From positions 41,312 through 105,311 of the forward strand of contig JAPOQU010000055.1 of assembly GCA_026710545.1 (NCBI GenBank): a stretch of 64,000 nucleotides of DNA, written 5' to 3'. How positions within the stretch are numbered: position 1 is the first letter of the stretch; every line of letters starts with the position of its first letter. This document shows positions 3,610 to 34,752 of this stretch, one piece after another. The translations under genes were made by a program, and so were the position numbers. Below the pieces are notes generated by a model, which worked only from the letters and a program-made list of their open reading frames with translations, did not search any database and had not been told where the DNA came from. The DNA is from Gammaproteobacteria bacterium. GTDB lineage: Bacteria; Pseudomonadota; Gammaproteobacteria; Eutrophobiales; Eutrophobiaceae.

Positions 3610-4827
3610 ATGATGGAAGCGTATATCCTTGAATGGCTGAACCTGTTGCTGCGCTGGGCGCACCTGATCGTGGGCATCGCCTGGATCGGCTCGTCCTTTT
3701 ATTTCGTCTGGCTGGATATGAACCTCAACGTCCCTCCCCGGGACCCGGAGGACGACGCGGTGGCCGGCGACCTGTGGGCGGTGCATGGCGGCGGGTTTTA
3801 CCATGCGCAGAAATACAAGGTCGCCCCGGGTGAGTTGCCTGAACCGCTGCACTGGTTCAAGTGGGAGGCCTATACCACCTGGTTGACCGGGTTTGCCTTA
3901 CTGGTGCTGATGTATTACGTCAATGCCGATGTGTACCTGGTCGATAAAAGCGTTGCCGATTTAACGGGCGGCCAGGCCATAGCAATCAGCATCGGTTTCA
4001 TCGTGGCGTCCTGGGTGGTTTACGACCTGCTGTGCAGAACCGGTCTGAGCGACGCCTGGATTGGACTGGTCGGTTTTTTATTCCTGGTTGCCGCAGTGTA
4101 CCTCCTGACGGACCTGTTCAGCGGGCGCGGCGCGTATATACAAACAGGCTCCATGCTGGGCACCATCATGGTCGCCAACGTGTTCATGGTGATCATTCCG
4201 GGCCAGCGCGAACTGGTGGAAGCCAAACTCCGTGGTGAAGACCCGGACCCGTTGCCCGGAATCAGGGGCAAGCAGCGCTCGGTGCATAACAATTACATCA
4301 CCCTGCCGGTGCTGTTTGTCATGTTGAGCCCGCACTATCCCATGACCTACGGGCATGAATACAACTGGTTGCTCCTCATCGCCATCTTCATCGCCGGGGT
4401 GCTGATCCGGCATTTCTTCAACCTCAGAAACCAGGGGAAAGCAGAGCCCCTGCTGCTGTTTATCGCACTTGTTATTATCATCCTGGCTGCGTTCATGGCT
4501 GCGCCGAAATCCAGGGCAATCCCTGACCGGGATGTGGCGCCGCGTGCCGAGCAACCCGTTGAACCCGTTTCATTTGCGCAAGTCAGACAGGTAATCGTCC
4601 AGCGCTGCAATAATTGCCATTCGATTGAACCGAACCATCCCACCGCGCCGGTCGCTCCCAACGCCGTGATGTTCGACACCCCGGAACAAATCGCACAATG
4701 GGCACAACGCATTCACGACAGGACCGTCACCACCAGGACCATGCCGCTGGCGAACCTGACGCAGATGACCGATGAAGAACGCCTGCTGGTGGCTCGTTGG
4801 TATAAAACCGGCGCCGAAATAGAATAG
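3610..4827 (+). CDS. puuD: urate hydroxylase PuuD (membrane cytochrome c urate oxidase)
   Basis: 405-aa polytopic membrane protein with a C-terminal CNNCH heme c motif (VIVQRCNNCHSIEP). Located downstream of xdhBC. Confidence 0.75.
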   Translation: MMEAYILEWLNLLLRWAHLIVGIAWIGSSFYFVWLDMNLNVPPRDPEDDAVAGDLWAVHGGGFYHAQKYKVAPGELPEPLHWFKWEAYTTWLTGFALLVLMYYVNADVYLVDKSVADLTGGQAIAISIGFIVASWVVYDLLCRTGLSDAWIGLVGFLFLVAAVYLLTDLFSGRGAYIQTGSMLGTIMVANVFMVIIPGQRELVEAKLRGEDPDPLPGIRGKQRSVHNNYITLPVLFVMLSPHYPMTYGHEYNWLLLIAIFIAGVLIRHFFNLRNQGKAEPLLLFIALVIIILAAFMAAPKSRAIPDRDVAPRAEQPVEPVSFAQVRQVIVQRCNNCHSIEPNHPTAPVAPNAVMFDTPEQIAQWAQRIHDRTVTTRTMPLANLTQMTDEERLLVARWYKTGAEIE

Positions 4828-4876
4828 AAGCAAAGCCGTTACAATCATCGCTTCACCACCGAGTTGATGCTTATGA

Positions 4877-4945
4877 TTACCCAGCCTGGCGTTCGCAGGA
4901 CTCCCGGCGGGAGGACCCGGACAGGTAGGTCAGGCGTTTGTAGCG
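4877..4945 (-). pseudogene. remnant 3' end of IMPDH-family gene (duplicated target-site fragment)
   Basis: Minus-strand reading gives ...KRLTYLSGSSRRESCERQAG*, which parallels the C-terminus ...KYLVPLSESSRRESYER* of the intact gene at 6294-7760. Contains direct repeat copy A. Confidence 0.5.
4889..4925. repeat. direct repeat copy A (gcgttcgcaggactcccggcgggaggacccggacagg) flanking the Fic islet
   Basis: 33/37 identity with 6297-6334; the four differences are all C/T transitions. Confidence 0.8.
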
Positions 4946-4960
4946 GCCAATATATTGGCC
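4945..4960. promoter_or_regulatory. perfect 16-bp palindrome GGCCAATATATTGGCC upstream of the Fic gene
   Basis: Seen directly. A related half-site TGGCCAAAA(A)T recurs at 4955 and 5043 in the AT-rich leader of fic. Confidence 0.35.
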
Positions 4961-5067
4961 AAAAATTTGTAATATTCTTGATTTATTCTATATTATAAGT
5001 TATAAAACAGACAGTTAGTTGAGTTTTAATCGGCCAACAAAGTGGCCAAAATATGCGTTGACCATGA

Positions 5068-6279
5068 ATGGTTACAACAAGTCATAATTTCACACCCTTT
5101 ATTCCTGACGATGTGGCATTAAACCGGTCTGACTTGCCGGATTTAGTGATATCAATGGTGGGCGCTGATGCGCAACTGGCTGGACATTTGACGGAAGTGA
5201 CAAAAGCAACGATTCGTCAATATATGGAAGTTATAAATTCATATTATTCGAACCTGATTGAAGGTAATCATACGCAACCGTACGAAATCCGCGCCGCACA
5301 AAGAGGTAAGTATCACGATGATCCGATCAAAAGAGATTTACAGAAGGAGTCCGTTGCGCATATACACGTTCAGAAGTGGATCAAGCAACAAGTCCTAGAC
5401 CAGAATACGATATATTCGAGCGATTTTCTAAAGGCCCTGCACAGGGAATTTTATACACAACTCCCTGAACGCATGTGGGAAATCAAGGATGATGAAGGAA
5501 ACACAAAGGGAAAGATCATACCGGGAGAATGGCGTACGGATACTGTCAAGGTTGGCCTGCACGTCCCCCCGTCTGCAGACAATCTGGAATCACTGATGCA
5601 ACAGTTTTGCGAGATATACCATCCCCGAAGGTACTCCGGAGAGAGAAAATATATCGCTCTTATGTGTGCGCATCACAGGTTTGTCTGGGTTCACCCGTTC
5701 CTTGACGGAAATGGAAGAGTCGCCAGGTTATTTACGGACGCTGCGCTCTCCAGTCTCGGATTGAACAGTGTAGGCGTATGGTATATCAGCCGAGGCGTAG
5801 CCAGGGCAGCAAATGGTTATAAGGGGTTACTGGCGCGCGCCGATTTCCCCCGTCAAGGTATGCATGATGGTCGCGGTTTGTTAAGTCAGGAAAACCTGGT
5901 GGATTTTTGTCGATTCATGCTTGCTGCCGCGATTGACCAGATAACGTACATGACCAGGTTGCTTGACCTGGGACAGATACAAAAAAGGATTTCCAGATAC
6001 ATACAAGCGCGAAATGACAACCGGGTCCCGGCAATCAGCGCTGAAATCAAGGAAATAGCATCACTGGTCCTGTACCAGGCGTTTATACACGGGGAATTGG
6101 AACGGCAAATGGCGTATGAACTGTGCGGCATGTCTGAGCGAAGCGCCCGCAGGTTGCTTGCGCAATTAAAGGAAGAAGGCCTGTTGACTGAAACATCATC
6201 ACGGTCACCGCTCAAGTGGTCAATCCCTGAACATGCGGAACCCTGGTACTTCCCTGAGTTAGTGCCAGGCCAGGTGTAG
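5068..6279 (+). CDS. Fic/DOC family protein (probable AMPylating toxin/effector)
   Basis: 403-aa ORF with canonical Fic motif HPFLDGNGRVARLF (HxFx(D/E)GNGRxxR). Gene and leader are AT-rich relative to the flanks. Confidence 0.85.
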   Translation: MVTTSHNFTPFIPDDVALNRSDLPDLVISMVGADAQLAGHLTEVTKATIRQYMEVINSYYSNLIEGNHTQPYEIRAAQRGKYHDDPIKRDLQKESVAHIHVQKWIKQQVLDQNTIYSSDFLKALHREFYTQLPERMWEIKDDEGNTKGKIIPGEWRTDTVKVGLHVPPSADNLESLMQQFCEIYHPRRYSGERKYIALMCAHHRFVWVHPFLDGNGRVARLFTDAALSSLGLNSVGVWYISRGVARAANGYKGLLARADFPRQGMHDGRGLLSQENLVDFCRFMLAAAIDQITYMTRLLDLGQIQKRISRYIQARNDNRVPAISAEIKEIASLVLYQAFIHGELERQMAYELCGMSERSARRLLAQLKEEGLLTETSSRSPLKWSIPEHAEPWYFPELVPGQV

Positions 6280-6293
6280 CTGACATTCTGTTT

Positions 6294-7760
6294 TCAGCGT
6301 TCGTAGGATTCCCGGCGGGAGGATTCGGACAGGGGTACCAGGTATTTCTCCGGGTTGCTGAGTATCTTCGCGCGCGCTGCCTGCAGCGTGGCTTCGCCCG
6401 CATAGCTGACGGACGAGCGCAGGTGGCCGCGCACGCGGTGCAGGATGTCGTTGACGCTGCCTTTGTACGGCACCTGTATTTCCTGGCCTTCGGGCGGGGT
6501 ATCGAGCGCGGCGTCGGTCGCTTCCGCGTTCTCCGGGTCATAGAGTGATTCCAGCACCGCTTCCGGTGAGGTCATGCCGCGGTAAATCTTCTTCTTGGTA
6601 TGGGTGACGGGGTCTTCGATGACCCTGCCGGGCGCCTCGTCGGTGCCGGACAATGCGCTGCCCAGCATGACCGTAGTTGCACCGCACACCAGGGCGAGAA
6701 AGATGTCCTTGTCCGTCTTGATGCCGCCATCGGCCATGATGGGGATTGAATCGCCCAGTGCCTTCCAGGTTTCGCGTATCGCCTGTAACTGCGGCACGCC
6801 GGCTGCGGTTTCCAGGCGGGTACGGCAGCCGCGGCCCGGCCCCACGCCGACCTTGACCGCGTCCGCGCCGATGTCCCGCATGAAGCGCGCCCCCTCGGCG
6901 GTGGCCACGTTGCCGCACACCAGGGGTACGCCGCCGAAGCGGCCGCGGAATCGTTCAACGGCCTCTTCCATCACCGTCGAATGGCCGTGGGCAATGTCGA
7001 TGAACAGGCAGTCAGCTCCTGCTTCCAGCAGTGCCGCACTACGGTCGAGGTAATCGCCCCGTGCGCCGATCGCGGCAGCAACCAGCAGGTGTCCCTTGTC
7101 ATCCTTGCTGGAGTAGGGACGTTCCCGCAGGGAAAAGATATCGCGACGCGTGATCAATCCGTGGATGCGTCGCTCGGCATCTACCAGCGGCAGGCGCTCG
7201 ATGCGATGTTCAAACAGTATCTTCGAGGCCTGTTCGATGGAAATCCCGGGTTTGTCGACAACCAGCCGGTCGAAAGAAGTCATGAAACGCTCCACAGGCT
7301 GGTCATCGTAGTCGCTGTTCCAGGGCATATCCCGCTGCGACAGCAGGCCGGCCAGGATATTGCTGCCGGGTTCCGTCTCGATCAGAATGCCGGTAATTGA
7401 ATGATTATGAGCGAAATTCCTGGCCTGCTGAATGGTAGTGCCCAGCGGCAGGCACAAGGGCTGATTGATGACCGCGCTCTGGCTGCGTTTTATCTGCGCT
7501 ACCTTGCGCGCCTGTCTCTCGATGGTCATGGCGCGATGGATCACGCCGATACCGCCTTCCATCGCCATCGCCCTGGCCATGTCCGCGCCGGTCACGCTGT
7601 CCATATTGGACGAGACGATGGGCAGTTCCAGGGAGATATGGCCGGTCAGTACACTAGCCAGACTGATGTCCCGGCGCGAGCCCGCCATCCCTTTTTGCGG
7701 GCGAAACAGGAAGTCGTCGAAGGTTTTTCCGACCCAGGATACATTATCTAAAGGTGTCAT
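6294..7760 (-). CDS. IMP dehydrogenase family protein (IMPDH/GMP reductase fold with CBS pair; non-canonical catalytic loop)
   Basis: 488 aa, clearly alignable to GuaB (GGIGVIH, CBS pair, ...GNVATAEGAR...ADAVKVGVGPG). The catalytic loop reads GVGPGRGCRTR rather than the canonical GIGPGSICTT (from memory), so this is probably a paralog rather than housekeeping guaB. GC-rich, core-like. Confidence 0.8.
   Translation of the reverse strand: MTPLDNVSWVGKTFDDFLFRPQKGMAGSRRDISLASVLTGHISLELPIVSSNMDSVTGADMARAMAMEGGIGVIHRAMTIERQARKVAQIKRSQSAVINQPLCLPLGTTIQQARNFAHNHSITGILIETEPGSNILAGLLSQRDMPWNSDYDDQPVERFMTSFDRLVVDKPGISIEQASKILFEHRIERLPLVDAERRIHGLITRRDIFSLRERPYSSKDDKGHLLVAAAIGARGDYLDRSAALLEAGADCLFIDIAHGHSTVMEEAVERFRGRFGGVPLVCGNVATAEGARFMRDIGADAVKVGVGPGRGCRTRLETAAGVPQLQAIRETWKALGDSIPIMADGGIKTDKDIFLALVCGATTVMLGSALSGTDEAPGRVIEDPVTHTKKKIYRGMTSPEAVLESLYDPENAEATDAALDTPPEGQEIQVPYKGSVNDILHRVRGHLRSSVSYAGEATLQAARAKILSNPEKYLVPLSESSRRESYER
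6297..6334. repeat. direct repeat copy B (gcgttcgtaggattcccggcgggaggattcggacagg), overlapping the last codons of the IMPDH-family gene
   Basis: Pairs with 4889-4925. Confidence 0.8.
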
Positions 7761-8177
7761 GAAGAACTTAGAAGATTAGACAGTGCTGGAGTGTCAGCTT
7801 GTTGATGATATGATACAGTTAACCGTGGCCAATCTATCAATTCTCACAGCTTTGATCAACGTCCGCATTCTAATTTTATCTTTGGTATTAGGAAACTTTG
7901 TAGTGTCTAAATACGTAAGCTTCATGCGAAATGATACATGCTTGATGATAGTCATGTCATCACTTAACGATTTATCAGTATTTGCTGCGTATTTATTATT
8001 AGTCAAACGTGTAATGACGCGCACACAATCAGGTAAATTATCGGAACGATACATTTGGGTGCTGGAGCAGAAAAAATGTGGATTTACTACTCGTCATCAA
8101 TTTGCTGCTCACCTTGCAGTAACAAAAAAAGTTATCCCAATCGAAATTTCATAGATGCCGAGAAGCAAATTATTTCT

Positions 8178-9674
8178 ATGAATGTTTTAGTTACTTTCAC
8201 AGGGTTCCATGATCCATACAGCCTAGGGTTAGTTGGGGAGGAGCAACAGGCTGGCCCGATCGTTTCCTTGGTAAGTGCAAAATCATTCGACCATGTAATA
8301 TTGATTTCTACGCTGAATACGAAGGAAAACACGACAGCGACGGAATCTGTACTCAAAGAGTTGAATCCTGAAGTGGGTATCTTAATCATCGAAGCTGGTT
8401 TGAGCGACCCTACGGATTATGCAGAAATATTAAATTTACTTCGCACCAAACTTTTGCCAAAATTAAATTTATTTGAAACACAGATAAACCTCTTTGTTGC
8501 TGTTGCGTCTGGTACACCACAAATGCACGCAGCATGGTTACTCTTGGTATCAAGCGGCGAAATACCTGCTCGAATTTTGCATATCAGACCAGCTCGATTT
8601 GTAACCACGGATAAACCTCTCGTAAGTGAAATCGACCTTTCATCGAAAGAGTTTCCTGAGGTTCGGAGTATTAGCTTGTCGAGACTGGAGTCTCCCGACA
8701 CGGCACTAGATGTCAACAAACTCATCCAATCGTTAGGAATTGTGGGTGACCACCCTGAACTCTCGAAAGCGCTTGATATATCAGCTACGCTCGCCTCCTC
8801 GAGTGTGCCAATTCTATTACTTGGAGAGACCGGAACTGGCAAAGAGTTACTGGCCAGATTCATCCACTTGGCCAGTGGCCGACCTAAGGATTGCTTCGTA
8901 GCAATCAACTGCGCAGCAATTCCTAGAGACTTGGTTGAGAGCATACTATTTGGTCACTGTAAAGGCGCCTTCACGGGAGCAGTATCCGACCAGAAGGGCA
9001 AATTTGCACAAGCAGATGGTGGCACGTTGTTTCTGGATGAACTTGGGGAACTACCGTTAGATACACAAGCGAAGTTGCTACGTGTTTTACAAGAAGGGCA
9101 GATTGAACCTGTCGGCACTGGTGAACCTCATAACGTAGATGTACGATTGATTGGTGCAACAAATGTCGACCTGCCTCGATCCATAAAGCAGGGTAACTTT
9201 CGTGAGGATCTCTATTACCGCTTGAATGTTGGCGAGATCCGCTTGCCACCGCTCAGGGAACGCCGTAGCGATATTCCGAAAATCGCACTCACATTGCTAG
9301 ATAAGGTAAATACAAGTCTGAAAGCGCCGAAACGACTGACCACAGGCGCGCTACAGCGATTACAGGCGCATGATTGGCCTGGAAACATTCGAGATCTGTC
9401 GAACACAATTGAGCGTACCGCACGACTAACACGCTCTGCGGTCTTAGATACAGACGATCTCATATTTGGCGAACCAGTAATCCATGCGGAGCCTTGGTCA
9501 ACATTACCAGAGCCAGCCGAGGGTTTTTCATTGGAGAATTTTCTATCTGATGCGCGAAAGCAGATTGTGATGCGGGCGCTGAAGATTAGCGGTGGTAATC
9601 AGAGTAAGGCAGCGCTCCTTCTTGGATTGACCCCCCAAGCCGTACACAAATATGTACAGAAGAATAGAACATGA
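8178..9674 (+). CDS. RtcR-like sigma54-dependent transcriptional activator (N-terminal CARF domain + AAA+ sigma54-interaction domain + C-terminal HTH)
   Basis: Start chosen at MNVLVTFTGF (ATG 8178); the longest ORF runs from 8055. Central domain has Walker A GETGTGKELLARFIH, the GAFTGA sigma54-contact motif and ESILFGH. C-terminal Fis-type HTH (QSKAALLLGLTPQAVHKYV). The N-terminal ~230 aa aligns with my recollection of the E. coli RtcR CARF domain (VLVTFTGFHDPY ~ VAFGFVGTVLDY; ASGTPQMHAAWLLLVSSGEIPARILHIRP ~ TTGTHVAQICWFLLAEARYLPARLIQSSP). Confidence 0.8.
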   Translation: MNVLVTFTGFHDPYSLGLVGEEQQAGPIVSLVSAKSFDHVILISTLNTKENTTATESVLKELNPEVGILIIEAGLSDPTDYAEILNLLRTKLLPKLNLFETQINLFVAVASGTPQMHAAWLLLVSSGEIPARILHIRPARFVTTDKPLVSEIDLSSKEFPEVRSISLSRLESPDTALDVNKLIQSLGIVGDHPELSKALDISATLASSSVPILLLGETGTGKELLARFIHLASGRPKDCFVAINCAAIPRDLVESILFGHCKGAFTGAVSDQKGKFAQADGGTLFLDELGELPLDTQAKLLRVLQEGQIEPVGTGEPHNVDVRLIGATNVDLPRSIKQGNFREDLYYRLNVGEIRLPPLRERRSDIPKIALTLLDKVNTSLKAPKRLTTGALQRLQAHDWPGNIRDLSNTIERTARLTRSAVLDTDDLIFGEPVIHAEPWSTLPEPAEGFSLENFLSDARKQIVMRALKISGGNQSKAALLLGLTPQAVHKYVQKNRT

Positions 9675-9685
9675 TTTTAACCAAG

Positions 9686-9702
9686 GTTTAAATAATTTAA
9701 AC
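9686..9702. promoter_or_regulatory. perfect palindrome GTTTAAATAATTTAAAC (7-3-7), 12 bp after the regulator stop
   Basis: Seen directly. AT-only, so not an intrinsic terminator. Candidate UAS/IHF-type site ~90 bp upstream of the sigma54 promoter. Confidence 0.35.
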
Positions 9703-9789
9703 TTCCATTGAAAATGGGTGATATCCAAAAATAAGCTTTGTTTAGATAACTACTTGAAAATAAATGAAATAAATATTTGTTGCGAAATG

Positions 9790-9805
9790 TGGCATAGCAT
9801 TTGCT
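9790..9805 (+). promoter_or_regulatory. sigma54 (RpoN) -24/-12 promoter TGGCATAGCATTTGCT
   Basis: GG (9791-92) and GC (9803-04) have exactly the consensus spacing of TGGCAC-N5-TTGCW, with one mismatch. Located 40 bp upstream of the ATG at 9845, with a GAGGAG Shine-Dalgarno in between, and immediately downstream of a sigma54 activator gene. Confidence 0.65.
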
Positions 9806-9844
9806 TTATCAGGGTATGACATCTTAGCCCAGAGGAGAAAAGCG

Positions 9845-10129
9845 ATGACACAGTTTAGAGTTTCAAAAATAATTGACGGGGATACATTCGAAGTGGCAGA
9901 GGGCTGGGAGTGGCATGGCAAAACCGGCTCAAGGGTGCGGCCTACCGGATATAACGCCCCGGAGTTACATACCGCTGCCGGGCAGTTGGCGAAACAAAAG
10001 CTCACAAGATTAATCCAGGGTGAGATAGTTAGTTTTGGAGAGGCTTATAGGATTGACCGTGGCCGTATTGTCTGCGTCGTGTATTATAATGGTCGTAATT
10101 TGGCGGACTATTTCAGAGAGTATCAATAA
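9845..10129 (+). CDS. thermonuclease (SNase/micrococcal nuclease) family protein, short form
   Basis: 94 aa with IDGDTFEV...RPTGYNAPE...GE.V.F...D.RGR.V..VY.NG.N, paralleling the SNase IDGDT / DxPE / YGR motifs. The Ca-binding Asp equivalent to SNase D40 appears replaced by Asn (YNAPE). First gene after the sigma54 promoter. Confidence 0.55.
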   Translation: MTQFRVSKIIDGDTFEVAEGWEWHGKTGSRVRPTGYNAPELHTAAGQLAKQKLTRLIQGEIVSFGEAYRIDRGRIVCVVYYNGRNLADYFREYQ

Positions 10130-10143
10130 CTCTCGCGAGGGAT

Positions 10144-12423
10144 ATGACGAAAGACACCACCAAAGAAACCGATGCTAGGATCGCCATTGATGACTGGCTA
10201 CGTCAGGCAGGTTGGGAGCCTTCAGATAAGTCTCAGGTCCAGACCGAGGTAAAGGCCAGTGGTGGTTTCGGTGGTATAGCTGATCCTGGGAGCGCTAGCG
10301 AACCTGGCGCTCTACATACATCTGATGGGGATGTTTTGCTTAGCGGCCGTGCTGACTACGTTTTGCTCGACCAGCGCGGGCAGCCCCTTGCGGTGGTCGA
10401 GGCAAAAAGGAAGGCCATCCATCCCTATGTAGCCAAACAACAAGCGCTCCCCTATGCCAAACAACTTGGTGCGCCGTTCATCTTTCTGACCAACGGTGAA
10501 CTGATCTACTTCTGGGATTATCAGAACGATGATGCCCGCATCGTCAACTCATTCTTCTCCCGTCGTGACATGGAGCGACTTGTGCATATGCGTAGTGAAC
10601 GCATGCCGCTCGCGACGATTGATATCCCTGACTACTTTACCCGCCAAGGTGAAACTCGCGAATTACGCCCATATCAGCGGGATGCTATGCGGGCTATGGA
10701 TCGCGCATTGGAACTTGGAAAGCGCCGTTTTCTGATCGAGTTGCCCACTGGTACGGGCAAGACCGACCTCATTTGTCAGTACATTCAACGGCTGATGCAG
10801 GCAGGACATGCGGAACGCGTCCTGTTTCTGGTTGACCGGGAACAGCTTGCTAAACAGGCTCTTGAGGCAATCACCGATCTGCTTGGTCATTACAGTCACT
10901 ATTGGCTCAAGCCCGGCATAGTACGCACCGAGCAGCAGATCACTGTTTGCCTGTTGCAAACCATGATCGGCCGTTACCATGAATACACTAGTGGTTATTT
11001 CGATATCGTCATCGCGGACGAATGCCACCGTTCCATATATGGTACCTGGCAGTCGGTATTGACCCATTTCGATGCCATTCATATCGGTTTAACTGCTACA
11101 CCGGCAGCATATATCGAGCGCAATACCTTCAGTTTCTACCAGTGCAAAGATAATACGCCAGATTTTTCTTATCCTATCCAAGACGCTTTCCAAAATGATT
11201 ATCTAGTACCCTACCGCTTCGCCGAAGGTATTACCGAGATAATCGCAGAAGGCGCGGACGTCGATGAGGAGCACTATGACCCCGCCGAGTTCGAGCGTAA
11301 GTGGACCAACGAAAAGACCAATCGTCTGATGATGGAGGAGTTTGACAAGCTGGCTTGGCAGAACTATCAAAGCCTGGCGCCAGGCCAGAAACCCGCACCG
11401 GGGAAGTCCATTGTATTTGCCATCACCAAACACCATGCCGCACGTCTGGCTCAGTATCTCAACGACTTGCATCCAGAATACAACGGACACTATGCTGAGG
11501 TGATCACCAGTGATGTGCAGAATACGGATGAACTGATCCGCAAGTTCAAGCGCGAGGATTACCCGCAAGTAGCCGTGAGTGTCGGTATGCTGGATACTGG
11601 TTTCGATTGCCGTGAGATCCTCCACTTAGTGATGTGTCGACGTGTGCGTAGTCCCATTCTCTATCAGCAGATGCGCGGGCGAGGTACGCGCACAGCACCG
11701 CATATCAGTAAGGGGAAGTTTGTGATTTACGACTTCTTTCGTAACCATCAGTACTTCAACGATAGCGATACAGATATCTTTATCGGTACGGGTACAGGCC
11801 ATGTTCCGACGATCCGTAAACCAAAGAGCATGTCCCAACGTGATCTCATTGAACTGGGGCTCGAAGATGAATGGTTGGAAGCAGTTAACTATGTCGAAGT
11901 GGGGCCCCAAGGAGAGCGCATCGACAAGCGTCAATACGTCACCGACTGGGAAAATACCGTTCGTGATGCCGTTGTGCACGATCCGATTATCAGGAAAATT
12001 CGATCGGGCAATTTGCTCAGTGATGGTGAAGAGCAGCAACTTGCTGTCCGACTCAACCAACCCGAACGCTACTTCAATGAAGAAAACCTGCGTCGTGCCT
12101 ATCGCAATCCGGGCGGCTCGCTGGTGGACTTCATTCGTGCAGCGCTGGGCCAGCAGAAGATCAAGAGCCGCGAAGAAACAGTGGACGAGAACTTCCGAGC
12201 CTGGCTGGTTACCCGCAACCTCAGTGCCGAGCAGGCACAGTACCTGGCTATGCTGAAAAACCGTGGTATTGCACGTGGCAAGCTAGCGCTGGACGATCTG
12301 TTTCAACCGCCACTCTCCATACTCAATGCCGCAAACCTCGGAATAGAATTCTTTGGCGAGCAGGGACTGAAAAAGGTCGTTGATGAAATGAACGATACAT
12401 TATTTAGCAGCGACAATAGATGA
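10144..12423 (+). CDS. hsdR: Type I restriction enzyme R subunit (HsdR), compact 759-aa form
   Basis: N-terminal restriction-endonuclease fold (VLLDQRGQPLAVVEAKRK) followed by SF2 helicase motifs: Q LRPYQRDAMRAM, I LPTGTGKT, II DECHRS, III LTATP. Immediately followed by hsdM and hsdS. Confidence 0.8.
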   Translation: MTKDTTKETDARIAIDDWLRQAGWEPSDKSQVQTEVKASGGFGGIADPGSASEPGALHTSDGDVLLSGRADYVLLDQRGQPLAVVEAKRKAIHPYVAKQQALPYAKQLGAPFIFLTNGELIYFWDYQNDDARIVNSFFSRRDMERLVHMRSERMPLATIDIPDYFTRQGETRELRPYQRDAMRAMDRALELGKRRFLIELPTGTGKTDLICQYIQRLMQAGHAERVLFLVDREQLAKQALEAITDLLGHYSHYWLKPGIVRTEQQITVCLLQTMIGRYHEYTSGYFDIVIADECHRSIYGTWQSVLTHFDAIHIGLTATPAAYIERNTFSFYQCKDNTPDFSYPIQDAFQNDYLVPYRFAEGITEIIAEGADVDEEHYDPAEFERKWTNEKTNRLMMEEFDKLAWQNYQSLAPGQKPAPGKSIVFAITKHHAARLAQYLNDLHPEYNGHYAEVITSDVQNTDELIRKFKREDYPQVAVSVGMLDTGFDCREILHLVMCRRVRSPILYQQMRGRGTRTAPHISKGKFVIYDFFRNHQYFNDSDTDIFIGTGTGHVPTIRKPKSMSQRDLIELGLEDEWLEAVNYVEVGPQGERIDKRQYVTDWENTVRDAVVHDPIIRKIRSGNLLSDGEEQQLAVRLNQPERYFNEENLRRAYRNPGGSLVDFIRAALGQQKIKSREETVDENFRAWLVTRNLSAEQAQYLAMLKNRGIARGKLALDDLFQPPLSILNAANLGIEFFGEQGLKKVVDEMNDTLFSSDNR

Positions 12424-12442
12424 CAGAAGGTGGTAACAACGC

Positions 12443-14095
12443 ATGAACCGCAGTTTACGAAGAAAGCTGGATCACATCACTGATGTCCTCTGGGCAGGTG
12501 GTGTTACTAATCCGGTTACCTATATTGAGCAGATCTCTTATTTGATCTTTCTGAAGTTGTTGGATGAGGAGGAACAGGACCGTGAACTGCGCGTTCGCCT
12601 CAGAGCCGCTAGTGGCAACGCTAAACTGTTGTTCCCCCAGCAGGCCGAACGTTATCGCTGGTCCAAGTGGCGTTTCATGAGCGGACCAGAGCTTCGCGAC
12701 TTCATCCGGGACGAAGTATTCCCTTACTTGGCATCGATAGCCAAAGATGAGCCTGAAGTGGCCGAGTATTTCCGCGATGCCGTGTTGGAGATTGTAGACC
12801 CTAATGTGCTGAAGCAGGTGGTGGACGAGATCGATACTTTCGAATTTCGCAAGCTTGGGCCAGACGTCAAAGGCGATATCTTCGAATATTTATTAACCCA
12901 TCTTGGTCAGTCGTCCCTGAATGGACAGTTTCGCACACCGCGCCAGATCCGTTCTTTCATGGTGGAAATGGTCGATCCAGAACTGGGTGATTCCGTTTTC
13001 GATCCAGCATGTGGAACAGCCGGTTTTCTTATAGACACAGTAGACTATCTGCTTGCTAAGTACAGCGAGACAGTACAAGAATATCCTATCTACGGCGAAG
13101 ACTGGTTGGAGAAGCGTGGACAGACTCTCGCTGAAGCTAGAAAAGAAATACCAAATCTCCAAACCTATCGCAAGGGTACAGGTGAAAAAATTCCAGACTG
13201 GAGCATGCTCGAAGCCTCGATTTTTGGCGTGGATGTTTCTCGTCAGATGATGCGCATAAGCATGATGAATCTCATACTACACAGCGTACGTCGAGCAAGG
13301 CTTAAACGCGGCAATTCATTGTCGGACCACGGAGGACTTACGGAGGAGGATTTATCGCGTCGCTACAAAGTGATACTGTCCAATCCGCCCTTCGCTGGAC
13401 AGATCCCGAAGGATTCCATCCGCTCAGACCTCTACACTAGTTCCAGGAAAAGTGAATTGCTCTTTCTGGGCTTAATGATGGAACATCTCGCCCCAGGTGG
13501 CCGTTGCGCTGTTGTGGTGCCGGAAGGTTTGCTGTTCGGCTCTACCAGCGCGCATAAGAATCTCCGAAAGAAACTTGTTGAGGATTTCGCTCTGCTCGCC
13601 GTGGTTTCTCTGCCAGCGGGTGTGTTTAGACCTTATGCGGGAGTAAAGACCAGCGTGCTGGTTTTCTGCAAACCCCAAAACGGAGGCAAGATAGAGAAAG
13701 CAGAGAAGATTTGGTTCTATGAGGTTTGCAACGACGGCTATGACCCCGACAAGATCTCTGATGGTGGTCGTGTGGAAACCCCCAACCTCAACGAGATTCC
13801 TGACCTACTCGCCAAATGGCAGGAGTACAAAGCATCTAAGTTCGATAATCCGCCTGGTGTGGAAGCCAATAGAATTCTGGAACCGGGGAATGAAATACCG
13901 CGATGTTGGTGGGCGGACGTGAAGACATTGGCGATTAATGATTTTCATTTGGCAGCGGGGCGTTACAAGCCGCAGGTCGCAGAAGCGGTACCAGAAGAAG
14001 ATCCGCTAGAATTAATAAAAGATACTTTAATAGTCGAAAAGGAGCTAACCCGAGGGCTTGAAAGATTGTTGCAAGAATTGGAAGCATCCCAGTGA
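12443..14095 (+). CDS. hsdM: Type I restriction-modification N6-adenine DNA methyltransferase subunit (HsdM)
   Basis: 550 aa; SAM motif I FDPACGTAGFL and catalytic motif IV NPPFAG; HsdM N-terminal domain. Confidence 0.9.
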   Translation: MNRSLRRKLDHITDVLWAGGVTNPVTYIEQISYLIFLKLLDEEEQDRELRVRLRAASGNAKLLFPQQAERYRWSKWRFMSGPELRDFIRDEVFPYLASIAKDEPEVAEYFRDAVLEIVDPNVLKQVVDEIDTFEFRKLGPDVKGDIFEYLLTHLGQSSLNGQFRTPRQIRSFMVEMVDPELGDSVFDPACGTAGFLIDTVDYLLAKYSETVQEYPIYGEDWLEKRGQTLAEARKEIPNLQTYRKGTGEKIPDWSMLEASIFGVDVSRQMMRISMMNLILHSVRRARLKRGNSLSDHGGLTEEDLSRRYKVILSNPPFAGQIPKDSIRSDLYTSSRKSELLFLGLMMEHLAPGGRCAVVVPEGLLFGSTSAHKNLRKKLVEDFALLAVVSLPAGVFRPYAGVKTSVLVFCKPQNGGKIEKAEKIWFYEVCNDGYDPDKISDGGRVETPNLNEIPDLLAKWQEYKASKFDNPPGVEANRILEPGNEIPRCWWADVKTLAINDFHLAAGRYKPQVAEAVPEEDPLELIKDTLIVEKELTRGLERLLQELEASQ

Positions 14096-15348
14096 AGTGG
14101 ACTACTACAACAATACAGCGAGTTTCGCAACAAACACAAGTGTGTAATCCTCGGGAACGTCAAGAAAGTCTGTTTAAGTATATAGATATATCATCAATTG
14201 ACCGCGATAAAAAAATTATTTCGCAGGCACCTGAAATAAAGGGAGCCAAGGCCCCAAGTCGCGCACGGAAAGAAGTAAATGCGGGTGACATCTTAGTATC
14301 CACTGTCAGGCCAAACTTGAATGCTGTGGCAATCGTACCGCCTGAATTGGACAGCCAAATCGCTTCTACTGGTTTTTCAGTCCTGCGTCCGGAAAGTGAT
14401 CTTATAAATGGACGTTATCTGTTTTATTTTGTCCAGACGTCTGGTTTTATTGATGCTTTGACGTCGAAAGTAAGAGGAGCCCATTACCCTGCAGTTTCAG
14501 ATACTGATGTAAAGAATGTTGAGCTTCCATTGCCTACGATAGCCGAACAACATCGCATCGTCGAAATTCTCGATCAGGCCCATGCTCTGCGTAAGAGTCG
14601 CACAAACGCTGACACTAAAGCTGTCCGCATCCTACCTGCATTGTTCTATCAGATGTTTGGCGATCCGTTATTGAATACCAAGGACTTTGAAAGAGTTTGC
14701 CTTGGCGACGCTGGTATTGCTGAGATCAATCCTCGGGCACCATCCCGAGACTTACCTAATGATCTGGAAGTTAGCTTCGTTCCAATGGCTGATGTAAATG
14801 AGGATTGGGGGCAGATTACTGGTTGCCAAATTAAGGAGCTAGGTGAAGTTAAGAAAGGATTTACTTCTTTTTTGGAGAACGATGTTCTATTTGCCAAAAT
14901 CACACCCTGTATGGAAAATGGAAAGGCTGCCATAGCTAGAGGACTCGGTAACGGATTGGGTTATGGTTCCACAGAATTTCATGTATTGCGAGCAGGAGAC
15001 CTGGTTACCCCAGAATGGATTTATGGGTTGACTAGACTGGACATTTTTAGAAATGTCGCAAAAGGAAATTTTATCGGTTCGGTGGGCCAACAGCGAGTAC
15101 CCGCTGACTTTTTGCGCAGTTTTCGCGTTCCTCTCCCTCCAAAAAAATTAATAGAAAAATTTTCAATTGTTGTGCGCGAGCTTCTTCAAGAGAACGATTA
15201 TAGGCGAGAGGCAGAAAAAAGAATTTCACAGTTAGTTCAAATAACAATGCATCATGCGTTTTCAGGAAAGCTGACTGAAGGCTGGCGAAGAGCCCACCTG
15301 AAGGAGGAGTTCCAAGAAATAGAGCACCAAGCGAGAGCAGGTACTTAA
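14092..15348 (+). CDS. hsdS: Type I restriction-modification specificity subunit (HsdS)
   Basis: 418 aa with two target-recognition domains separated by conserved central and distal repeats. Start overlaps the hsdM stop. Confidence 0.85.
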   Translation: MKWTTTTIQRVSQQTQVCNPRERQESLFKYIDISSIDRDKKIISQAPEIKGAKAPSRARKEVNAGDILVSTVRPNLNAVAIVPPELDSQIASTGFSVLRPESDLINGRYLFYFVQTSGFIDALTSKVRGAHYPAVSDTDVKNVELPLPTIAEQHRIVEILDQAHALRKSRTNADTKAVRILPALFYQMFGDPLLNTKDFERVCLGDAGIAEINPRAPSRDLPNDLEVSFVPMADVNEDWGQITGCQIKELGEVKKGFTSFLENDVLFAKITPCMENGKAAIARGLGNGLGYGSTEFHVLRAGDLVTPEWIYGLTRLDIFRNVAKGNFIGSVGQQRVPADFLRSFRVPLPPKKLIEKFSIVVRELLQENDYRREAEKRISQLVQITMHHAFSGKLTEGWRRAHLKEEFQEIEHQARAGT

Positions 15349-15363
15349 GGAATTTTTGAGGAT

Positions 15364-17034
15364 TTGATAATGATAAAAACGCTCTTCACCGGCAACTTCA
15401 AAGCCTTCGCCGAGACCCAACGAATTCCAATCAGACCGATTACAATGATCTTTGGTCCAAATAGCGCTGGTAAATCGAGCTTCATCCATAGCTTAGCGCT
15501 AGCGAGCGAAGCCGAGCGTACCGGACGGTTGGATGTATTCAAAACTGAGGTCGGCGGTAGTGCCATCGACCTGGGTGGATTCCGGCAGTACATCCATCGT
15601 GGCGAGGCAAAGCGTCGAATGGAATGGGGTGCAGAGTTAGATGTGTCATCACTTCAGGGTCGGCTAGAGGAACTTCTGGCTCCAGTCAATACGCTCAAAG
15701 TGGTTATGTTCACAGGTGTGGCACTGGACAACGAAGAACGACCGTTAGTAAGCGCCGAACCGGCTGTTACAGGATACGAGTTATTCGGAGATGACCAACT
15801 CCTATTGCGCATGAGTCGTCGGCCGGATGGGAAACTGCGGCTGGACCGGCTGAACCACGAGCACTTGGTCTTTCGTGAGGTTCTTAAGGCTATCGTCACT
15901 ACTGCAACCACAACGAACACTGTTACAAAGGAGGATTTCGAGGGGATTGACGACGTCATCAACGTTATGGTGCCTCGACTGAGTATAGGGGTGACTAAAC
16001 TGTTCCCCGAAGGGCTGACTGATCGGCGTGTCGATAATGAGGAACAGGAGCAAGCCACATTGTTTCCGGTTAGCAAGGGCAATCGGAGTGAGGACCTTGC
16101 TAATGCGATCAATTTCTTTCTGCCAAAGACACTTGATGAACTCATCATGGGGACTAGCCAGATTCTGGCGCAGGAACTCAAGAAACTGCAATACCTTGGT
16201 CCTCTCCGTTCTTTTCCGCCCCGGCACTTGGCCTTTTCGGAACACGAGGACGCAAACTGGTACGCAGGTGGCGGTTACGCTTGGGATATTGTACGCAGGG
16301 ACGACACGGTTCGCTCTGCGGTCAATGAATGGCTGGGATCGGAGGTATTGAAGACACCGTATGAACTTGTAGTCCGTCAGTTGGTGGGTATCAGCGATTT
16401 AGATCCTGTATTGGAGGAAGGCCTTGAGACGATCATTGATGACGGGGTGGAAATTGAGCATGAGCCGGAGTCCGAGTATACGGGTGGCGGAGCCTATCCG
16501 ATACTCCGGGATTCGGAGGCAGAGGCACGTCGTCTTCAAGAGTTGATCCAGACGTCCGATTTGAAAAAGCTCAAGGAGCTGGTCCTTATTGACAGACGAT
16601 CCAATACGGTGGTGTCACACCGTGATGTGGGGATCGGTATTACCCAGGTACTGCCTGTGCTTGTGTTGGCCTATGCATCTACAGACAAATTGATCGCCAT
16701 GGAGCAGCCGGAAATTCACCTACACCCTGCGCTACAGGCAGAGTTAGGTGACGTATTCATTAATTCGGCGTTGGGAGGGCGCGGCAATCGATTCATACTG
16801 GAAACTCACAGTGAGCACCTCCTTTTACGTATTATGCGTCGTATGCGAGAAACAGATGAACAAATGTTACCGGAAGGCACTAAGCCGATACATCCTGAAG
16901 ATGTGATGGTTCTTTACGTCGAGCCAGATGGTGGTCGTAGTATTGTGCGCGAGATGCCATTGAATGCCCGGGGCGAACTGGTAAAAGCGTGGCCAGGCGG
17001 TTTCTTCGAAGAAGGTCTACGGGAGATATTCTAA
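15364..17034 (+). CDS. ABC-type (AAA_21/AAA_15-like) ATPase, first gene of a two-gene module
   Basis: 556 aa. Walker A FGPNSAGKSS at residues ~29-38; Walker B/D-loop LIAMEQPEIHLHP; H-loop ETHSEHLL near the C-terminus, with a long inserted region between. This is the architecture of ATPases from OLD/Septu/AbiL/PARIS-type defence modules. Starts 16 bp after the hsdS stop. Confidence 0.8.
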   Translation: MIMIKTLFTGNFKAFAETQRIPIRPITMIFGPNSAGKSSFIHSLALASEAERTGRLDVFKTEVGGSAIDLGGFRQYIHRGEAKRRMEWGAELDVSSLQGRLEELLAPVNTLKVVMFTGVALDNEERPLVSAEPAVTGYELFGDDQLLLRMSRRPDGKLRLDRLNHEHLVFREVLKAIVTTATTTNTVTKEDFEGIDDVINVMVPRLSIGVTKLFPEGLTDRRVDNEEQEQATLFPVSKGNRSEDLANAINFFLPKTLDELIMGTSQILAQELKKLQYLGPLRSFPPRHLAFSEHEDANWYAGGGYAWDIVRRDDTVRSAVNEWLGSEVLKTPYELVVRQLVGISDLDPVLEEGLETIIDDGVEIEHEPESEYTGGGAYPILRDSEAEARRLQELIQTSDLKKLKELVLIDRRSNTVVSHRDVGIGITQVLPVLVLAYASTDKLIAMEQPEIHLHPALQAELGDVFINSALGGRGNRFILETHSEHLLLRIMRRMRETDEQMLPEGTKPIHPEDVMVLYVEPDGGRSIVREMPLNARGELVKAWPGGFFEEGLREIF

Positions 17035-17036
17035 GG

Positions 17037-17969
17037 ATGTTGCTCGCTGAGTATGCGATAACTCCAGACGTATTTGATGCGACGTCCTATGTCAACGAGG
17101 ATCTATGTGCTGCACGATTGGAGCTCATTCGCGAGGTAATGTTAAATGAGGGCGTGATACGCGATCTTAGAAATGGAAGCTGGTCTAACTTGTTCAGAAG
17201 TGACCATCGCTCCTGGCATCGTAGAGCTAAGGAGCTTGCCAAAAAGCTAGCCTCACAAAATAGATTAAGACCCTTTGTGCCACAGCTGGCAGTGAAGCCA
17301 TCCGTAGATTCAGAGTGGTGTGATGAGGCGTTGGTTACTCATGGGATCGAACCCTTGACAGGTATCATTGTAACGGACACGATTTCAGACGGCTACATAG
17401 GGAATCCCCTTGTTTCAAGGGTCGATAGATTGAACAGCGCTCCATGGTGGAGCGGAAGAAAACCATCCATGCGCCTCAATAGAACATTTACAGATTATCT
17501 AAACGCATTGTCATTGGTACTGAGACATGCCAACTCCATTATGTTTATTGACCCGCATATAGATCCGACTCAGCCCAAGTACAATGATTTTATTGAATTG
17601 ATAAAGAGAGCGGGCAATCGCAACCCATTACCATTGATTGAGATTCATCGAGTTTGTTATCGTGGCTCGGGACAACATAGGAAGATATTAGATCTTCAAC
17701 AATTGGAGGCTAGTTTCAGAAATGAACTTACCCAACCACTGCAGAGAGTGGGCTTGACTGCTGAAATTTTTGTCTGGGATGATTTTCATGACAGATATGT
17801 CTTAAGTAATCTAGTAGGAATTGCGCTCCTTAATAGTCTCGATACAACAATTATGCAAAATTCAACAACGACCTGGACTCGTTTAGGCCACAAAGACAGG
17901 GATGATGTGCAAAGAGAATTTGACCCAGCAAGTAATCAGCATAAATTAAAGAAGAAGTTCGCAATTTGA
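17037..17969 (+). CDS. hypothetical protein (311 aa), partner of the ABC ATPase
   Basis: ATG 2 bp after the ATPase stop, so translationally coupled. The longest ORF is 16989-17969. Acidic clusters (IMFIDPHIDP, VWDDFHDRY) could belong to a metal-dependent nuclease (TOPRIM/DUF4435-like?), but I cannot assign a domain from sequence. AT-rich. Confidence 0.6.
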   Translation: MLLAEYAITPDVFDATSYVNEDLCAARLELIREVMLNEGVIRDLRNGSWSNLFRSDHRSWHRRAKELAKKLASQNRLRPFVPQLAVKPSVDSEWCDEALVTHGIEPLTGIIVTDTISDGYIGNPLVSRVDRLNSAPWWSGRKPSMRLNRTFTDYLNALSLVLRHANSIMFIDPHIDPTQPKYNDFIELIKRAGNRNPLPLIEIHRVCYRGSGQHRKILDLQQLEASFRNELTQPLQRVGLTAEIFVWDDFHDRYVLSNLVGIALLNSLDTTIMQNSTTTWTRLGHKDRDDVQREFDPASNQHKLKKKFAI

Positions 17970-30848: not shown

Positions 30849-30934
30849 GCCGATGTGGTGGAATTGGTAGACACGCTGTCTTGAGGGGGCAGTGCCCAAA
30901 AGGCGTGCCGGTTCGACTCCGGCCATCGGCACCA
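30849..30934 (+). tRNA. tRNA-Leu (anticodon GAG), 86 nt with long variable arm and encoded CCA
   Basis: Acceptor stem GCCGATG/CATCGGC, D-arm GTGGAATTGGTAGAC, anticodon stem CTGTC/GGCAG with loop TTGAGGG, T-arm GGTTCGACTCC, 3' ACCA. Confidence 0.85.
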
Positions 30935-30938
30935 TTTC
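30912..30938. repeat. att core: 3' end of tRNA-Leu (ttcgactccggccatcggcaccatttc)
   Basis: Identical 27-mer recurs at 33636-33662; a degenerate copy lies at 34713-34732. Confidence 0.85.
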
Positions 30939-31096
30939 ATATTATTTTTATCTAAGACGAATTTTGATAACCTTCAGGATGTAGTGACGATCTCCTAGCC
31001 GTTATTTATCTTTAGCTAAATACCGGCATTCTCACCTGAATTATATTTTTTATGCTATTATTGCCAATATCAGGCCATAGCGGAGAAATATATATC

Positions 31097-31915
31097 ATGG
31101 TGTCACTAGCAGGGATTGGAAAATCCTATCGTAATAAACTCAGTATGGTTTTAGAGCATAATTTTGCCGTAATTACTGTGGATCGGGTTGCAGAGACACT
31201 GAATGTGCATCATCAAGAAGCTGGCAGGCTACTGTCTCGTTGGTGTAAAAACGGTTGGTTAAAAAGACTGACTCGAGGTGCATACGTGCCAGTGCCATTA
31301 GAGGCGACTAGCAGTGAAGTAGTTGCAGAGGAACCCTTATTGATCGTCGATGCGTTGTATGCGCCTGGTTATATAGCGGGTTATAGCGCTATAAAACATT
31401 GGGATTTTTCTGAACAAATTTTTGAAACAACGACCTACTTTACTACGCGTAAGATTAAAAATAGATATCCATCCCACGGTGGTGTGAAGTACCAATTAAA
31501 AACTATTAAAGCTTATAAATTATTCGGTTTAAAACCACTTTGGTTTGGATCCAAAAAAGTCATGATTAGCGATCCAACAAAAACCCTGGTTGATATTCTG
31601 GATGATCCCAAGATTGTAGGCGGGATATCCATCGTCAGTGATGTGCTGGCAGAATACATGGAGTCAACGCATTATGAACCAGATGCAATAATCACATATG
31701 CAAGGAGAATGAATAATAAAACTATTTTCAAACGATTAGGTTTCTTACTTGAAACCAGATTTTCGCTTGACAAAGAATTATCAGAAGAATTACTGACAAA
31801 CGTCTCTGAAAGCTACTCCCATCTTGATCCCACTATCCAGTCACATCACAGTATTGCAAAATGGCGGTTAAAAATATCAGCGTCATGGAAAGACGAATAT
31901 GATAGAAAAAAATGA
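31097..31915 (+). CDS. AbiEi-family antitoxin/transcriptional regulator (type IV TA)
   Basis: Winged-helix N-terminus with the RWCKNGWLKRLTRGAYVPVP signature of AbiEi (NTD wHTH) plus the C-terminal AbiEi domain. Followed by an AbiEii toxin gene with a 17-bp overlap. Confidence 0.7.
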   Translation: MVSLAGIGKSYRNKLSMVLEHNFAVITVDRVAETLNVHHQEAGRLLSRWCKNGWLKRLTRGAYVPVPLEATSSEVVAEEPLLIVDALYAPGYIAGYSAIKHWDFSEQIFETTTYFTTRKIKNRYPSHGGVKYQLKTIKAYKLFGLKPLWFGSKKVMISDPTKTLVDILDDPKIVGGISIVSDVLAEYMESTHYEPDAIITYARRMNNKTIFKRLGFLLETRFSLDKELSEELLTNVSESYSHLDPTIQSHHSIAKWRLKISASWKDEYDRKK

Positions 31916-33278: not shown

Positions 33279-33635
33279 TTAAGCTATTTTATATTTATCT
33301 TCTCTTTAAACGTGGTTCTAGAAAATAATGGGCTCATATATTCTTCTCAATAAAATAGTAGGGGGACTAATGATGTCTGTAAATCCTAGTGATCCTAAAT
33401 GGCTAGAAATACTTAAGGGTGGCAAACGGCCGCATTAGCACTTGCGTGCGTACTTATTGTCGTGCTAATAAACAAAGACGTTATACCAACTACAAGCAGT
33501 CCATTATGGATAACGGTACCTTCTATTGTTGCTGTAATTTGTGGTTGCCTATCTTTGGCCGCAATTGGAAAGGCTCTTGCCAAAACTTTCAAACCAGTAA
33601 TGAAGATTAATCAATGGCTTCTGGAACATTATAGC

Positions 33636-33662
33636 TTCGACTCCGGCCATCGGCACCATTTC
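33636..33662. repeat. att repeat copy 2 (perfect 27-bp copy of tRNA-Leu 3' end)
   Basis: Seen directly. Confidence 0.85.
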
Positions 33663-33691
33663 CGGGTTTTAACGGTTTATTATGGCCGAAT

Positions 33692-34030
33692 ATGGCTGGA
33701 TTTATGGCTGAAACAATCATGCTGAATTTCGACGATTATGCGGCTGCTATTGACGAATCGAAAACGGCGCGGATGGAACAGCGCACCAAACCGCATGTCA
33801 AGGCGCAAATACAACGAGCGGCGGCCCTGCTCGGTATCGATGAGACAACTTTCGTGACAAGCGTAGCGCTTGAGCGCGCCCAGGCAACGATTGCCGACCA
33901 CGAACGTACGATCCTGTCTGCCGCAGACCGTGACATGGTTCTGGCCGCCTTGGAAACGCCGGCGCCGCCGACCGACGCACTGCGGGAGGTCATGGCGATG
34001 CACGATGCCCGAGTGGCGCCGGGTGACTGA
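33692..34030 (+). CDS. DUF1778-family antitoxin (TacA-like, RHH)
   Basis: QRAAALLGIDETTFVTSVALERAQATIADHERTILSAADRDMVLAALETPAPPTDALREVMA matches the DUF1778 pattern (...RAA...G.S...FV...A...A..V...). Overlaps the downstream GNAT gene. Confidence 0.75.
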   Translation: MAGFMAETIMLNFDDYAAAIDESKTARMEQRTKPHVKAQIQRAAALLGIDETTFVTSVALERAQATIADHERTILSAADRDMVLAALETPAPPTDALREVMAMHDARVAPGD

Positions 34031-34732: not shown

Positions 34733-34752
34733 TTCAAATTTTGTTGTCCTAA

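Follow-up and report, generated by a model that had tools for sequence, protein, structure and literature searches.

A gene for a Fic protein occupies the space between two convergent core genes in the window analysed here, a 64-kb (64,000-nucleotide) stretch of contig JAPOQU010000055.1 from a gammaproteobacterial genome assembly (GCA_026710545.1). On its left lies a gene for a puuD-like urate hydroxylase and on its right, read from the opposite strand, a gene of the IMPDH family, and the Fic gene together with its upstream region is enclosed by a direct repeat of the last codons of this IMPDH-family gene. In a preliminary description of the window the repeat was understood as the attachment (att) site of a site-specific element. 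According to the comparisons with related genomes presented below, the insert is probably a scar of an ordinary kind, left by insertion into a hotspot of gene exchange, and not a mobile-element attachment site.

The Fic gene and the duplicated end of the IMPDH-family gene

The interval between the two copies of the repeat (4926-6296) comprises 1371 nt with 46.7% GC, against 57.6% and 61.7% in the flanking genes, and its sole open reading frame (ORF) is the Fic gene, so the preliminary description of an AT-rich interval with Fic only was correct. The Fic protein is matched by the PADLOC SoFic profile over residues 53-378 (E 1.5e-34), and its active site HPFLDGNGR and N-terminal inhibitory helix SNLIEGN, both of which are invariant columns in 40 homologues, satisfy the HPFx[D/E]GN[G/K]R and the intramolecular inhibitory (S/T)xxxE(G/N) motifs, respectively. 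The C-terminal domain is helical and winged-helix-like. The AlphaFold model of the protein (40-sequence input; pLDDT 88) was matched end to end by Foldseek, over ~380-420 columns, with 7xux (TM 0.65-0.76), SoFic 3eqx/3zcn (probability 1.0), and 8cil. The likeness to SoFic defence enzymes thus includes the profile match, the full-length fold with its C-terminal domain, and the catalytic and inhibitory motifs, whereas the identity to solved SoFic-like structures is only 16-21%, and the score against the NCBIfam SoFic equivalog NF046030 (32.3 bits) is far under the cut-off of 550.

On the basis of sequence and fold comparison the protein is classified as a distant member of the SoFic family and not as an orthologue of Shewanella SoFic, and it is predicted to be an auto-inhibited class II AMP-transferase acting as an abortive-infection defence. 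Sofic itself is characterized as an AMPylating abortive-infection toxin (PMC12249575). The earlier label "Fic toxin" was confirmed with respect to the Fic domain, but the gene encodes an auto-inhibited SoFic-type enzyme and not a member of a FicT/FicA toxin-antitoxin pair. An AS1-like downstream antitoxin gene is excluded for room, since just 14 nt separate the Fic gene from the IMPDH stop codon; the first 5-13 nt of this spacer (CTGACATTCTGTT) are common to the Fic modules of two related contigs, L154 and L052.

Upstream of the Fic gene, what had been described as a palindromic leader is really a pair of operator-like sites, each a tandem GGCCAA-N6-GGCCAA. These tandem CGGCCAnnnAnCGGCCAAA sites stand ~87 bp apart, and the pair is kept upstream of nearly all ~80 metagenomic Fic relatives (L062-L141; 51-67% identity), while in the closer relatives L052, L154, L155, and L156 the homology with the window begins at the distal site. 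As judged from this conservation the double operator-like pair is a regulatory feature of the Fic family, and the Fic protein probably regulates itself via its C-terminal DNA-binding-like domain at both GGCCAA-N6-GGCCAA sites. The available part of the Sofic paper (PMC12249575) does not describe a conserved double operator, and its presence before SoFic-type genes may be useful to defence-system work.

The direct repeat, found by a repeat search of the window, consists of 37 nt, of which 33 (89%) are identical in the two copies, with a 14-nt identical core. The earlier count of 33/37 with four C/T differences was accurate, and only the end of copy B had to be moved from 6334 to 6333. At all four differing positions (4896/6304, 4901/6309, and 4916-4917/6324-6325) copy A has C where copy B has T. 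In a degenerate search with ≤3 mismatches just two copies were found in the window, against 0 in 100 shuffles.

The IMPDH ending …PLSESSRRESYER* is kept in 15/15 close relatives, and according to this fact copy B is functional and copy A is dead, as had been proposed. On the minus strand copy A reads …KRLTYLSGSSRRESCERQAG, that is, the dead tail …SSRRESCERQAG with three amino-acid changes and a lost stop; the read-through codons QAG* are the last 12 nt (4877-4888, minus strand) of the 61-nt spacer next to puuD, with the stop at 4877-4879. At the original stop position copy A has CAG, which is one transition from the TAG of L004, the closest relative of the window, while copy B and all other relatives have TGA. 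Most differences between the copies are derived, non-synonymous changes in copy A.

The similarity of copy A to real tails continues perhaps 15 nt further, to ~4940, with a weak best score of 9/15 (empirical P ~0.02). A longer duplicate with copy A reaching -52 was rejected as marginal on this score, and the same GCCTGA beyond the operator in L155 suggests that those bases belong to the Fic module. The 61-nt spacer had no counterpart at related loci other than the identical contigs L001-L003, and its proposed homology to the flanks of older pseudo-tails in relatives was unconvincing on comparison. A hairpin in the tail as a recombination hotspot was also rejected, the CTCCCGCCGGGAG dyad being as stable as shuffled sequence (z ~0), and Rfam gave no match in 4600-8200 at E ≤ 1. 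The features of the locus are collected in Table 1.

Table 1. Features of the Fic insert and its surroundings in the window, followed by pseudo-tails of the IMPDH-family gene in related contigs (positions given relative to the end of the gene)
Feature	Position	Strand	Basis or content
puuD-like urate hydroxylase gene, converging on IMPDH; left hotspot border	3610..4827	+	Pfam Urate_ox_N E 5e-132
Spacer, 61 nt, puuD stop to pseudo-tail	4828..4888	.	Read from sequence
Copy A, pseudo-tail of the IMPDH-family gene, displaced and decayed (LSGSSRRESCER, without its stop)	4889..4925	-	Repeat search, relatives' tails
Distal operator-like site (GGCCAATATATTGGCCAA), at which the conserved Fic module has its left end	4945..4962	+	GGCCAA-N6-GGCCAA
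AT-rich promoter-like stretch between the operator sites	4967..4996	+	Consensus match only: TTGTAA-16/18-TATATT/TATTAT
Proximal operator-like site (GGCCAACAAAGTGGCCAA)	5032..5049	+	GGCCAA-N6-GGCCAA
SoFic-type Fic (AMP-transferase) gene, 403 aa	5068..6279	+	Pfam Fic E 4e-16; PADLOC SoFic; fold match
Spacer, 14 nt, Fic stop to IMPDH stop	6280..6293	.	Comparison with relatives' Fic modules
IMPDH-family gene, 488 aa, CBS domain; native high-GC core gene	6294..7760	-	Pfam IMPDH E 3e-100
Copy B, the working 12-codon end of the IMPDH-family gene (…SSRRESYER*)	6297..6333	-	Repeat search, relatives' tails
Second low-GC defence island beyond IMPDH, 10 kb	7763..18039	+	Profile matches
Pseudo-tail in L009	~-35..+1		Cargo GcvT and truncated adenosine-deaminase gene
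Pseudo-tail in L012	~-33..+1		Cargo AlbA_2 ATPase gene; 5 nt from puuD stop
Older pseudo-tail in L143	-66..-11		After phosphoribosyltransferase pair
Older pseudo-tail in L147	-26..+11		After phosphoribosyltransferase pair
Older pseudo-tail in L011	-7..+28		After phosphoribosyltransferase pair

The interval between IMPDH and puuD in related genomes

The scan of relatives, in which one genome per species was used, gave 58 loci with relatives of the IMPDH-family gene. Against the GuaB equivalog TIGR01302 the gene of the window scores 389.8 bits, below the cut-off of 481.5, and its neighbours are xanthine dehydrogenase, xdhC, and puuD-like urate hydroxylase genes, with two phosphoribosyltransferase genes in relatives. 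The low score and the xanthine dehydrogenase/urate cluster make "IMPDH-family" the right label instead of canonical GuaB, and the gene is probably a purine catabolism or salvage paralogue. A 508-aa IMPDH variant (P0042 in L142), whose homology to the window protein ends at residue 391, was rejected as a case of tail replacement; the normal tail sequence remains in the DNA, and the variant is probably due to a frameshift in a long-read contig.

The closest relative, L004, has an IMPDH-family gene with 97.4% nucleotide and 97.5% amino-acid identity to that of the window (98% in the initial scan), and its gene order is TonB-IMPDH-puuD-xdhC, without Fic and without the 10-kb low-GC island beyond IMPDH; the puuD orthologue also adjoins IMPDH in L005 and L006. 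Because puuD and IMPDH are adjacent in L004 without Fic, the Fic gene of the window is an insertion, and the earlier claim of an insertion next to the IMPDH 3' end with duplication of the target tail was supported by this uninterrupted locus. The insert was present in all three metagenomic contigs bearing the Fic allele of the window, and exact-protein look-ups of the window IMPDH and PuuD, made in search of empty-site variants, gave no match. The IMPDH-family genes of the window and L004 differ by 40 mismatches, five of them in the last 25 nt against a rate of 2.4% elsewhere; at least two of these five (1443 C/G and 1461 A/G) are polymorphisms common among relatives. At the IMPDH-puuD junction of L004 (7468-7735) lies an element of ~265 bp whose terminal inverted repeats (GTACTCTTTCAACCTGATATTGCCATGTTCAG…) are perfect over 34 nt and whose flanks are TAG/CTAG; it resembles a miniature inverted-repeat transposable element, and without it the two stop codons would overlap.

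Among relatives the length of the IMPDH-puuD interval varies from 0.1 to >6 kb. In ~16 genomes it contains either nothing, a small palindromic element, two phosphoribosyltransferase genes, Fic, helix-turn-helix/HigB-like genes, a Schlafen/AlbA_2 ATPase, or a GcvT-adenosine deaminase-transporter cluster. No integrase or recombinase was found in the interval of these ~16 related genomes or between the repeats of the window, in agreement with the earlier statement that no recombinase remains there.

Scars comparable with that of the window recur in this interval (Table 1). In L009 the cargo is a random piece of an operon that is intact in L008 and L010, and the pseudo-tail is still joined to native downstream sequence (L011-type junction), as is clearly also the case for that of L012, 5 nt from the puuD stop. 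In L006 the stop region itself is tandemly duplicated. Fic is also present here in relatives without duplication of the IMPDH tail: in L155 it converges on IMPDH across a 76-nt gap that retains the native terminator, in L052 it stands 91 nt from IMPDH, and in L154 it stands 22 nt from puuD. In such relatives the nucleotide identity of Fic (85-86%) is on par with that of IMPDH and puuD (82-91%), and from this comparison Fic is judged to be old in the IMPDH-puuD hotspot. In L052 (7444-7535) the spacer on the IMPDH side keeps the phosphoribosyltransferase stop and last codons (~14-17 nt) as a pseudo-tail.

Origin of the duplication

The reading favoured here, with moderate confidence, is that the repeat is a scar of duplicative recombination, anchored by homology and completed by one non-homologous join, in a defence-gene hotspot, and not a recombinase attachment site. 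The ancestor would have been similar to L004, in that the stop codons of the convergent puuD and IMPDH-family genes nearly met. A defence module of ~1.35 kb, with fic of the SoFic type as its only gene and with a promoter and two operator sites, may then have been acquired from a related genome, the donor being a relative that already had the same fic beside IMPDH. A homologous crossover inside the last ~25-140 nt of IMPDH would have imported the TGA-ended tail, the 14-nt spacer, and the module, while the other join would have been non-homologous, connecting the DNA just past the distal operator to ~-37 of the recipient tail. By this the last 12 codons of the recipient would have been pushed to the far side of the insert, where they could decay. 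The pathway may have been homology-facilitated illegitimate recombination, or else a related route through break repair or template switching.

In keeping with this order of events, the CAG of copy A beside the TAG of L004, as opposed to TGA elsewhere, and the clustering of mismatches in the final 25 nt suggest that the original tail of the lineage survives as copy A, the end of copy B having come with the insert. Homology-facilitated illegitimate recombination with one-sided homology was proposed for the orphan arrays of type VI secretion system (T6SS), Rhs, and contact-dependent growth inhibition (CDI) genes, in which cargo is joined non-homologously at a conserved anchor gene, older sequence is displaced downstream, and fragments of the anchor 3'-region are repeated (PMC5361080). 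The displaced part there is a toxin tip or immunity gene, while in the window it is the last 12 codons of a housekeeping-type IMPDH paralogue. Where convergent genes abut, just those insertions that are duplicative would spare both genes, and such scars can therefore be expected to accumulate at such sites. The insert offers a clean, dated example of small defence genes entering and leaving a core-gene hotspot without visible mobile-element machinery, and it illustrates how the host reading frame may be preserved by importing a replacement tail.

Possible, though doubtful, is an origin nearer to the preliminary description, in which a tyrosine-recombinase element with a replacement IMPDH tail in its attP integrated at the gene 3' end, as e14 and phage 21 do in icd, and the integrase was later lost or acted in trans, so that a cassette like a cis-mobilizable element (CIME) was left between attL and attR. 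The repeats span exactly ~-37 to the last sense codon, the 14-nt core is identical, and boundaries of -37, -35, and -33 in three genomes are what this origin would give. Moreover, a displaced tail plus a replaced working tail is the icd/icdC pattern of Escherichia coli, where a metabolic gene receives from the insert at its 3' end a working tail that differs slightly from the original, which persists across the insert as a C-terminal pseudogene fragment, icdC (PMC13626634). However, e14, a prophage of 15 kb, brings its own integrase and excises on SOS induction, whereas the insert of the window is one gene with a 37-nt repeat, and its site lacks a recombinase in the genomes compared.

CIMEs are by definition att-flanked elements with the integrase lost (PMC5704250), and in CIMEs and tycheposon-type arrays integrase-less cargo between repeats of the target 3' end accumulates in hotspots (PMC5704250; bioRxiv 10.1101/2020.12.28.424599). 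An array that fits this description is present in the window itself, where integrase-less toxin-antitoxin (TA) cassettes lie between repeats of a tRNA-Leu 3' end, and relatives carry an integrase at the same tRNA site; thus att-flanked cassettes that have decayed do occur in this genome. The same observation also weighs in the opposite direction, because it demonstrates that integrases are detectable where they act, whereas no integrase was found at the IMPDH tail, where the boundaries also differ from one event to another. The other pseudo-tails begin at -66, -26, and -7, the cargoes are not discrete mobile cassettes but a truncated piece of a chromosomal operon in L009 and two purine-salvage genes in L143 and L147, and the tail has neither a significant hairpin nor an Rfam match. 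Integrases are also rare by the Fic family in general, with an integrase domain in 2 of 149 neighbouring ORFs. The preliminary description had stated that Fic standing here in relatives without a duplicated gene tail would tell against its proposal, and this is largely the situation in L155, L052, and L154. With an integrase-free interval and other duplications that differ in boundaries and cargo, the proposal that the 37-mer is the att of a site-specific element is not supported, and a direct repeat of a gene 3' end is by itself no proof of an att site.

In another scenario, which is considered unlikely, Fic is an ancient resident that was inherited vertically in the hotspot, and the tail was duplicated in place, independently of the arrival of Fic, by tandem duplication or template switching at the convergent gene ends; in L004 Fic would then have been lost later, either when the repeats recombined with each other or when the interval was replaced. 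The Fic divergence, which follows that of the core genes, is consistent with such residence. Long-lived duplications at the IMPDH end are indicated by the old pseudo-tails common to L143, L147, and L011, the tandem duplication of the stop region in L006 is of the required kind, and the mostly derived, non-synonymous changes of copy A are those expected for decay in place. On the other hand, the insert still has 47% GC against ~60% in the flanks, the closest relative is without Fic, and the working tail departs from that of L004 exactly where an imported segment would lie.

Some members of the Fic family at other loci are accompanied by similar repeats. Duplicated neighbour-gene ends flank 6/41 Fic loci versus 2/113 shifted control windows (Fisher P = 0.005); without L141, rich in repetitive extragenic palindromic (REP) elements, the value is P = 0.015, and the flanking repeat of L141 was discounted as a REP-like element present in control windows too. 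The end of a PatZ-like gene in L066 (5568-9495) occurs in three 160-nt copies with one common boundary, with a zeta-type TA in the next slot, and a 215-nt quinone oxidoreductase end in L076 (1-7135) alternates with AbiE pairs. A 26-nt terminator is duplicated beside Fic in L140, Fic stands in a transfer-messenger RNA (tmRNA) array in L064, and in L052 (8746-8900), where the closest genome-derived relative of the Fic gene lies, a 201-aa neighbour has its 3' end duplicated over 61 nt with 77% identity. That ~15% of SoFic-type genes are bracketed by duplicated neighbour-gene ends may be useful to defence-system work. In L066 and L076 the cassettes (Fic, zeta-like toxin with antitoxin, RES-Xre, and AbiE pairs) form TA/defence arrays, with pseudo-copies (160-300 nt) of the 3' end of the adjacent PatZ-like or quinone-oxidoreductase gene lying between one cassette and the next. 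The commonest neighbours of the Fic family are type I restriction genes, and this restriction-modification neighbourhood suggests a possible functional link.

These duplications could mean that the single-gene Fic module is itself a mobile cassette, entering gene 3' ends or terminators by an unknown mechanism and duplicating 20-215 bp of the target. Local gene-end or terminator duplications in the window, L052, L066, L076, L140, and L064, the enrichment over control windows, and the limits of the homology between close relatives (the distal operator on one side, 5-13 nt past the stop codon on the other) point in this direction. Nevertheless this explanation is very improbable. The same scars are borne by other cargoes (AbiE, zeta-like TA, GcvT, and AlbA_2), which attributes them to the sites and the process and not to Fic; neutral flanks would be unrecognisable anyway at 82-88% identity; and the repeat lengths are too variable for a transposase. 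Moreover, Fic enzymes are not known to have DNA-strand-transfer chemistry. A broader variant, to which only a low probability is given, is that SoFic-type modules, perhaps with other TA/defence cassettes, spread by an undescribed recombinase-independent route to convergent or terminal gene ends, again with duplication of 20-215 bp. Such a route may build arrays of cassettes separated by pseudo-tails, as at the IMPDH, PatZ, Qor, and 201-aa genes.

Several facts weigh against the duplicative recombination scar as well. The pseudo-tail boundaries of the window, L009, and L012 (-37, -35, and ~-33) fall within ~6 nt, which could reflect a preferred crossover site, as from a recombinase, and for which ascertainment (short repeats are stable, and those <~20 nt are undetectable) accounts just partly. 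The insert includes hardly anything beyond the functional module, the Fic homology between close relatives ending at the distal operator and 5-13 nt past the stop codon, and a random illegitimate join does not predict this. The enrichment of bracketed Fic loci together with the common boundary in L066 suggests a more regular process. In addition, the pseudo-tail is ~10% diverged, somewhat above the expectation since the split from L004 (Poisson P ~0.05, calculated from a rough estimate of 1.4 expected changes and not from computed dS).

Other islands of the window

The 10-kb island beyond IMPDH contains genes for an RtcR/PspF2-like CARF-sigma54 activator, a 94-aa ORF, type I hsdR/M/S, an NsnB/PDC-M55A-like ATPase with DUF3696, and a partner protein of 326 aa without family. 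No flanking repeat was found for this island; compared with L004, it stands in place of the intergenic region between IMPDH and TonB and of the codons for the TonB signal peptide, so that TonB has a new 5' end. In L084 (5995-12273) Fic is followed by an RtcR-like CARF-sigma54 activator (37% identity to that of the window) and a large HsdR, in the same order and orientation as the Fic … RtcR-like-HsdR of the window, which IMPDH separates. The idea that Fic and the right-hand island were once one unit, later split by IMPDH, was rejected, since IMPDH is native (97.4% to L004), while the right-hand island lacks repeats and took the place of the intergenic region on its own.

The tRNA-Leu/secG site, 23 kb from the insert, holds the second array of integrase-less cassettes in the window (30849-34739). 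The 27-nt 3' end of tRNA-Leu (30912-30938) is repeated perfectly at 33636-33662 and with 67% identity at 34713-34739; between the repeats lie a pair of low-GC AbiEi/AbiEii genes (31052-33278) and a gene for a GNAT acetyltransferase (33870-34595). Among seven related contigs a tyrosine integrase was present at this site in two (L148 and L152), and in L147 the site is occupied by a TacA-GNAT pair.

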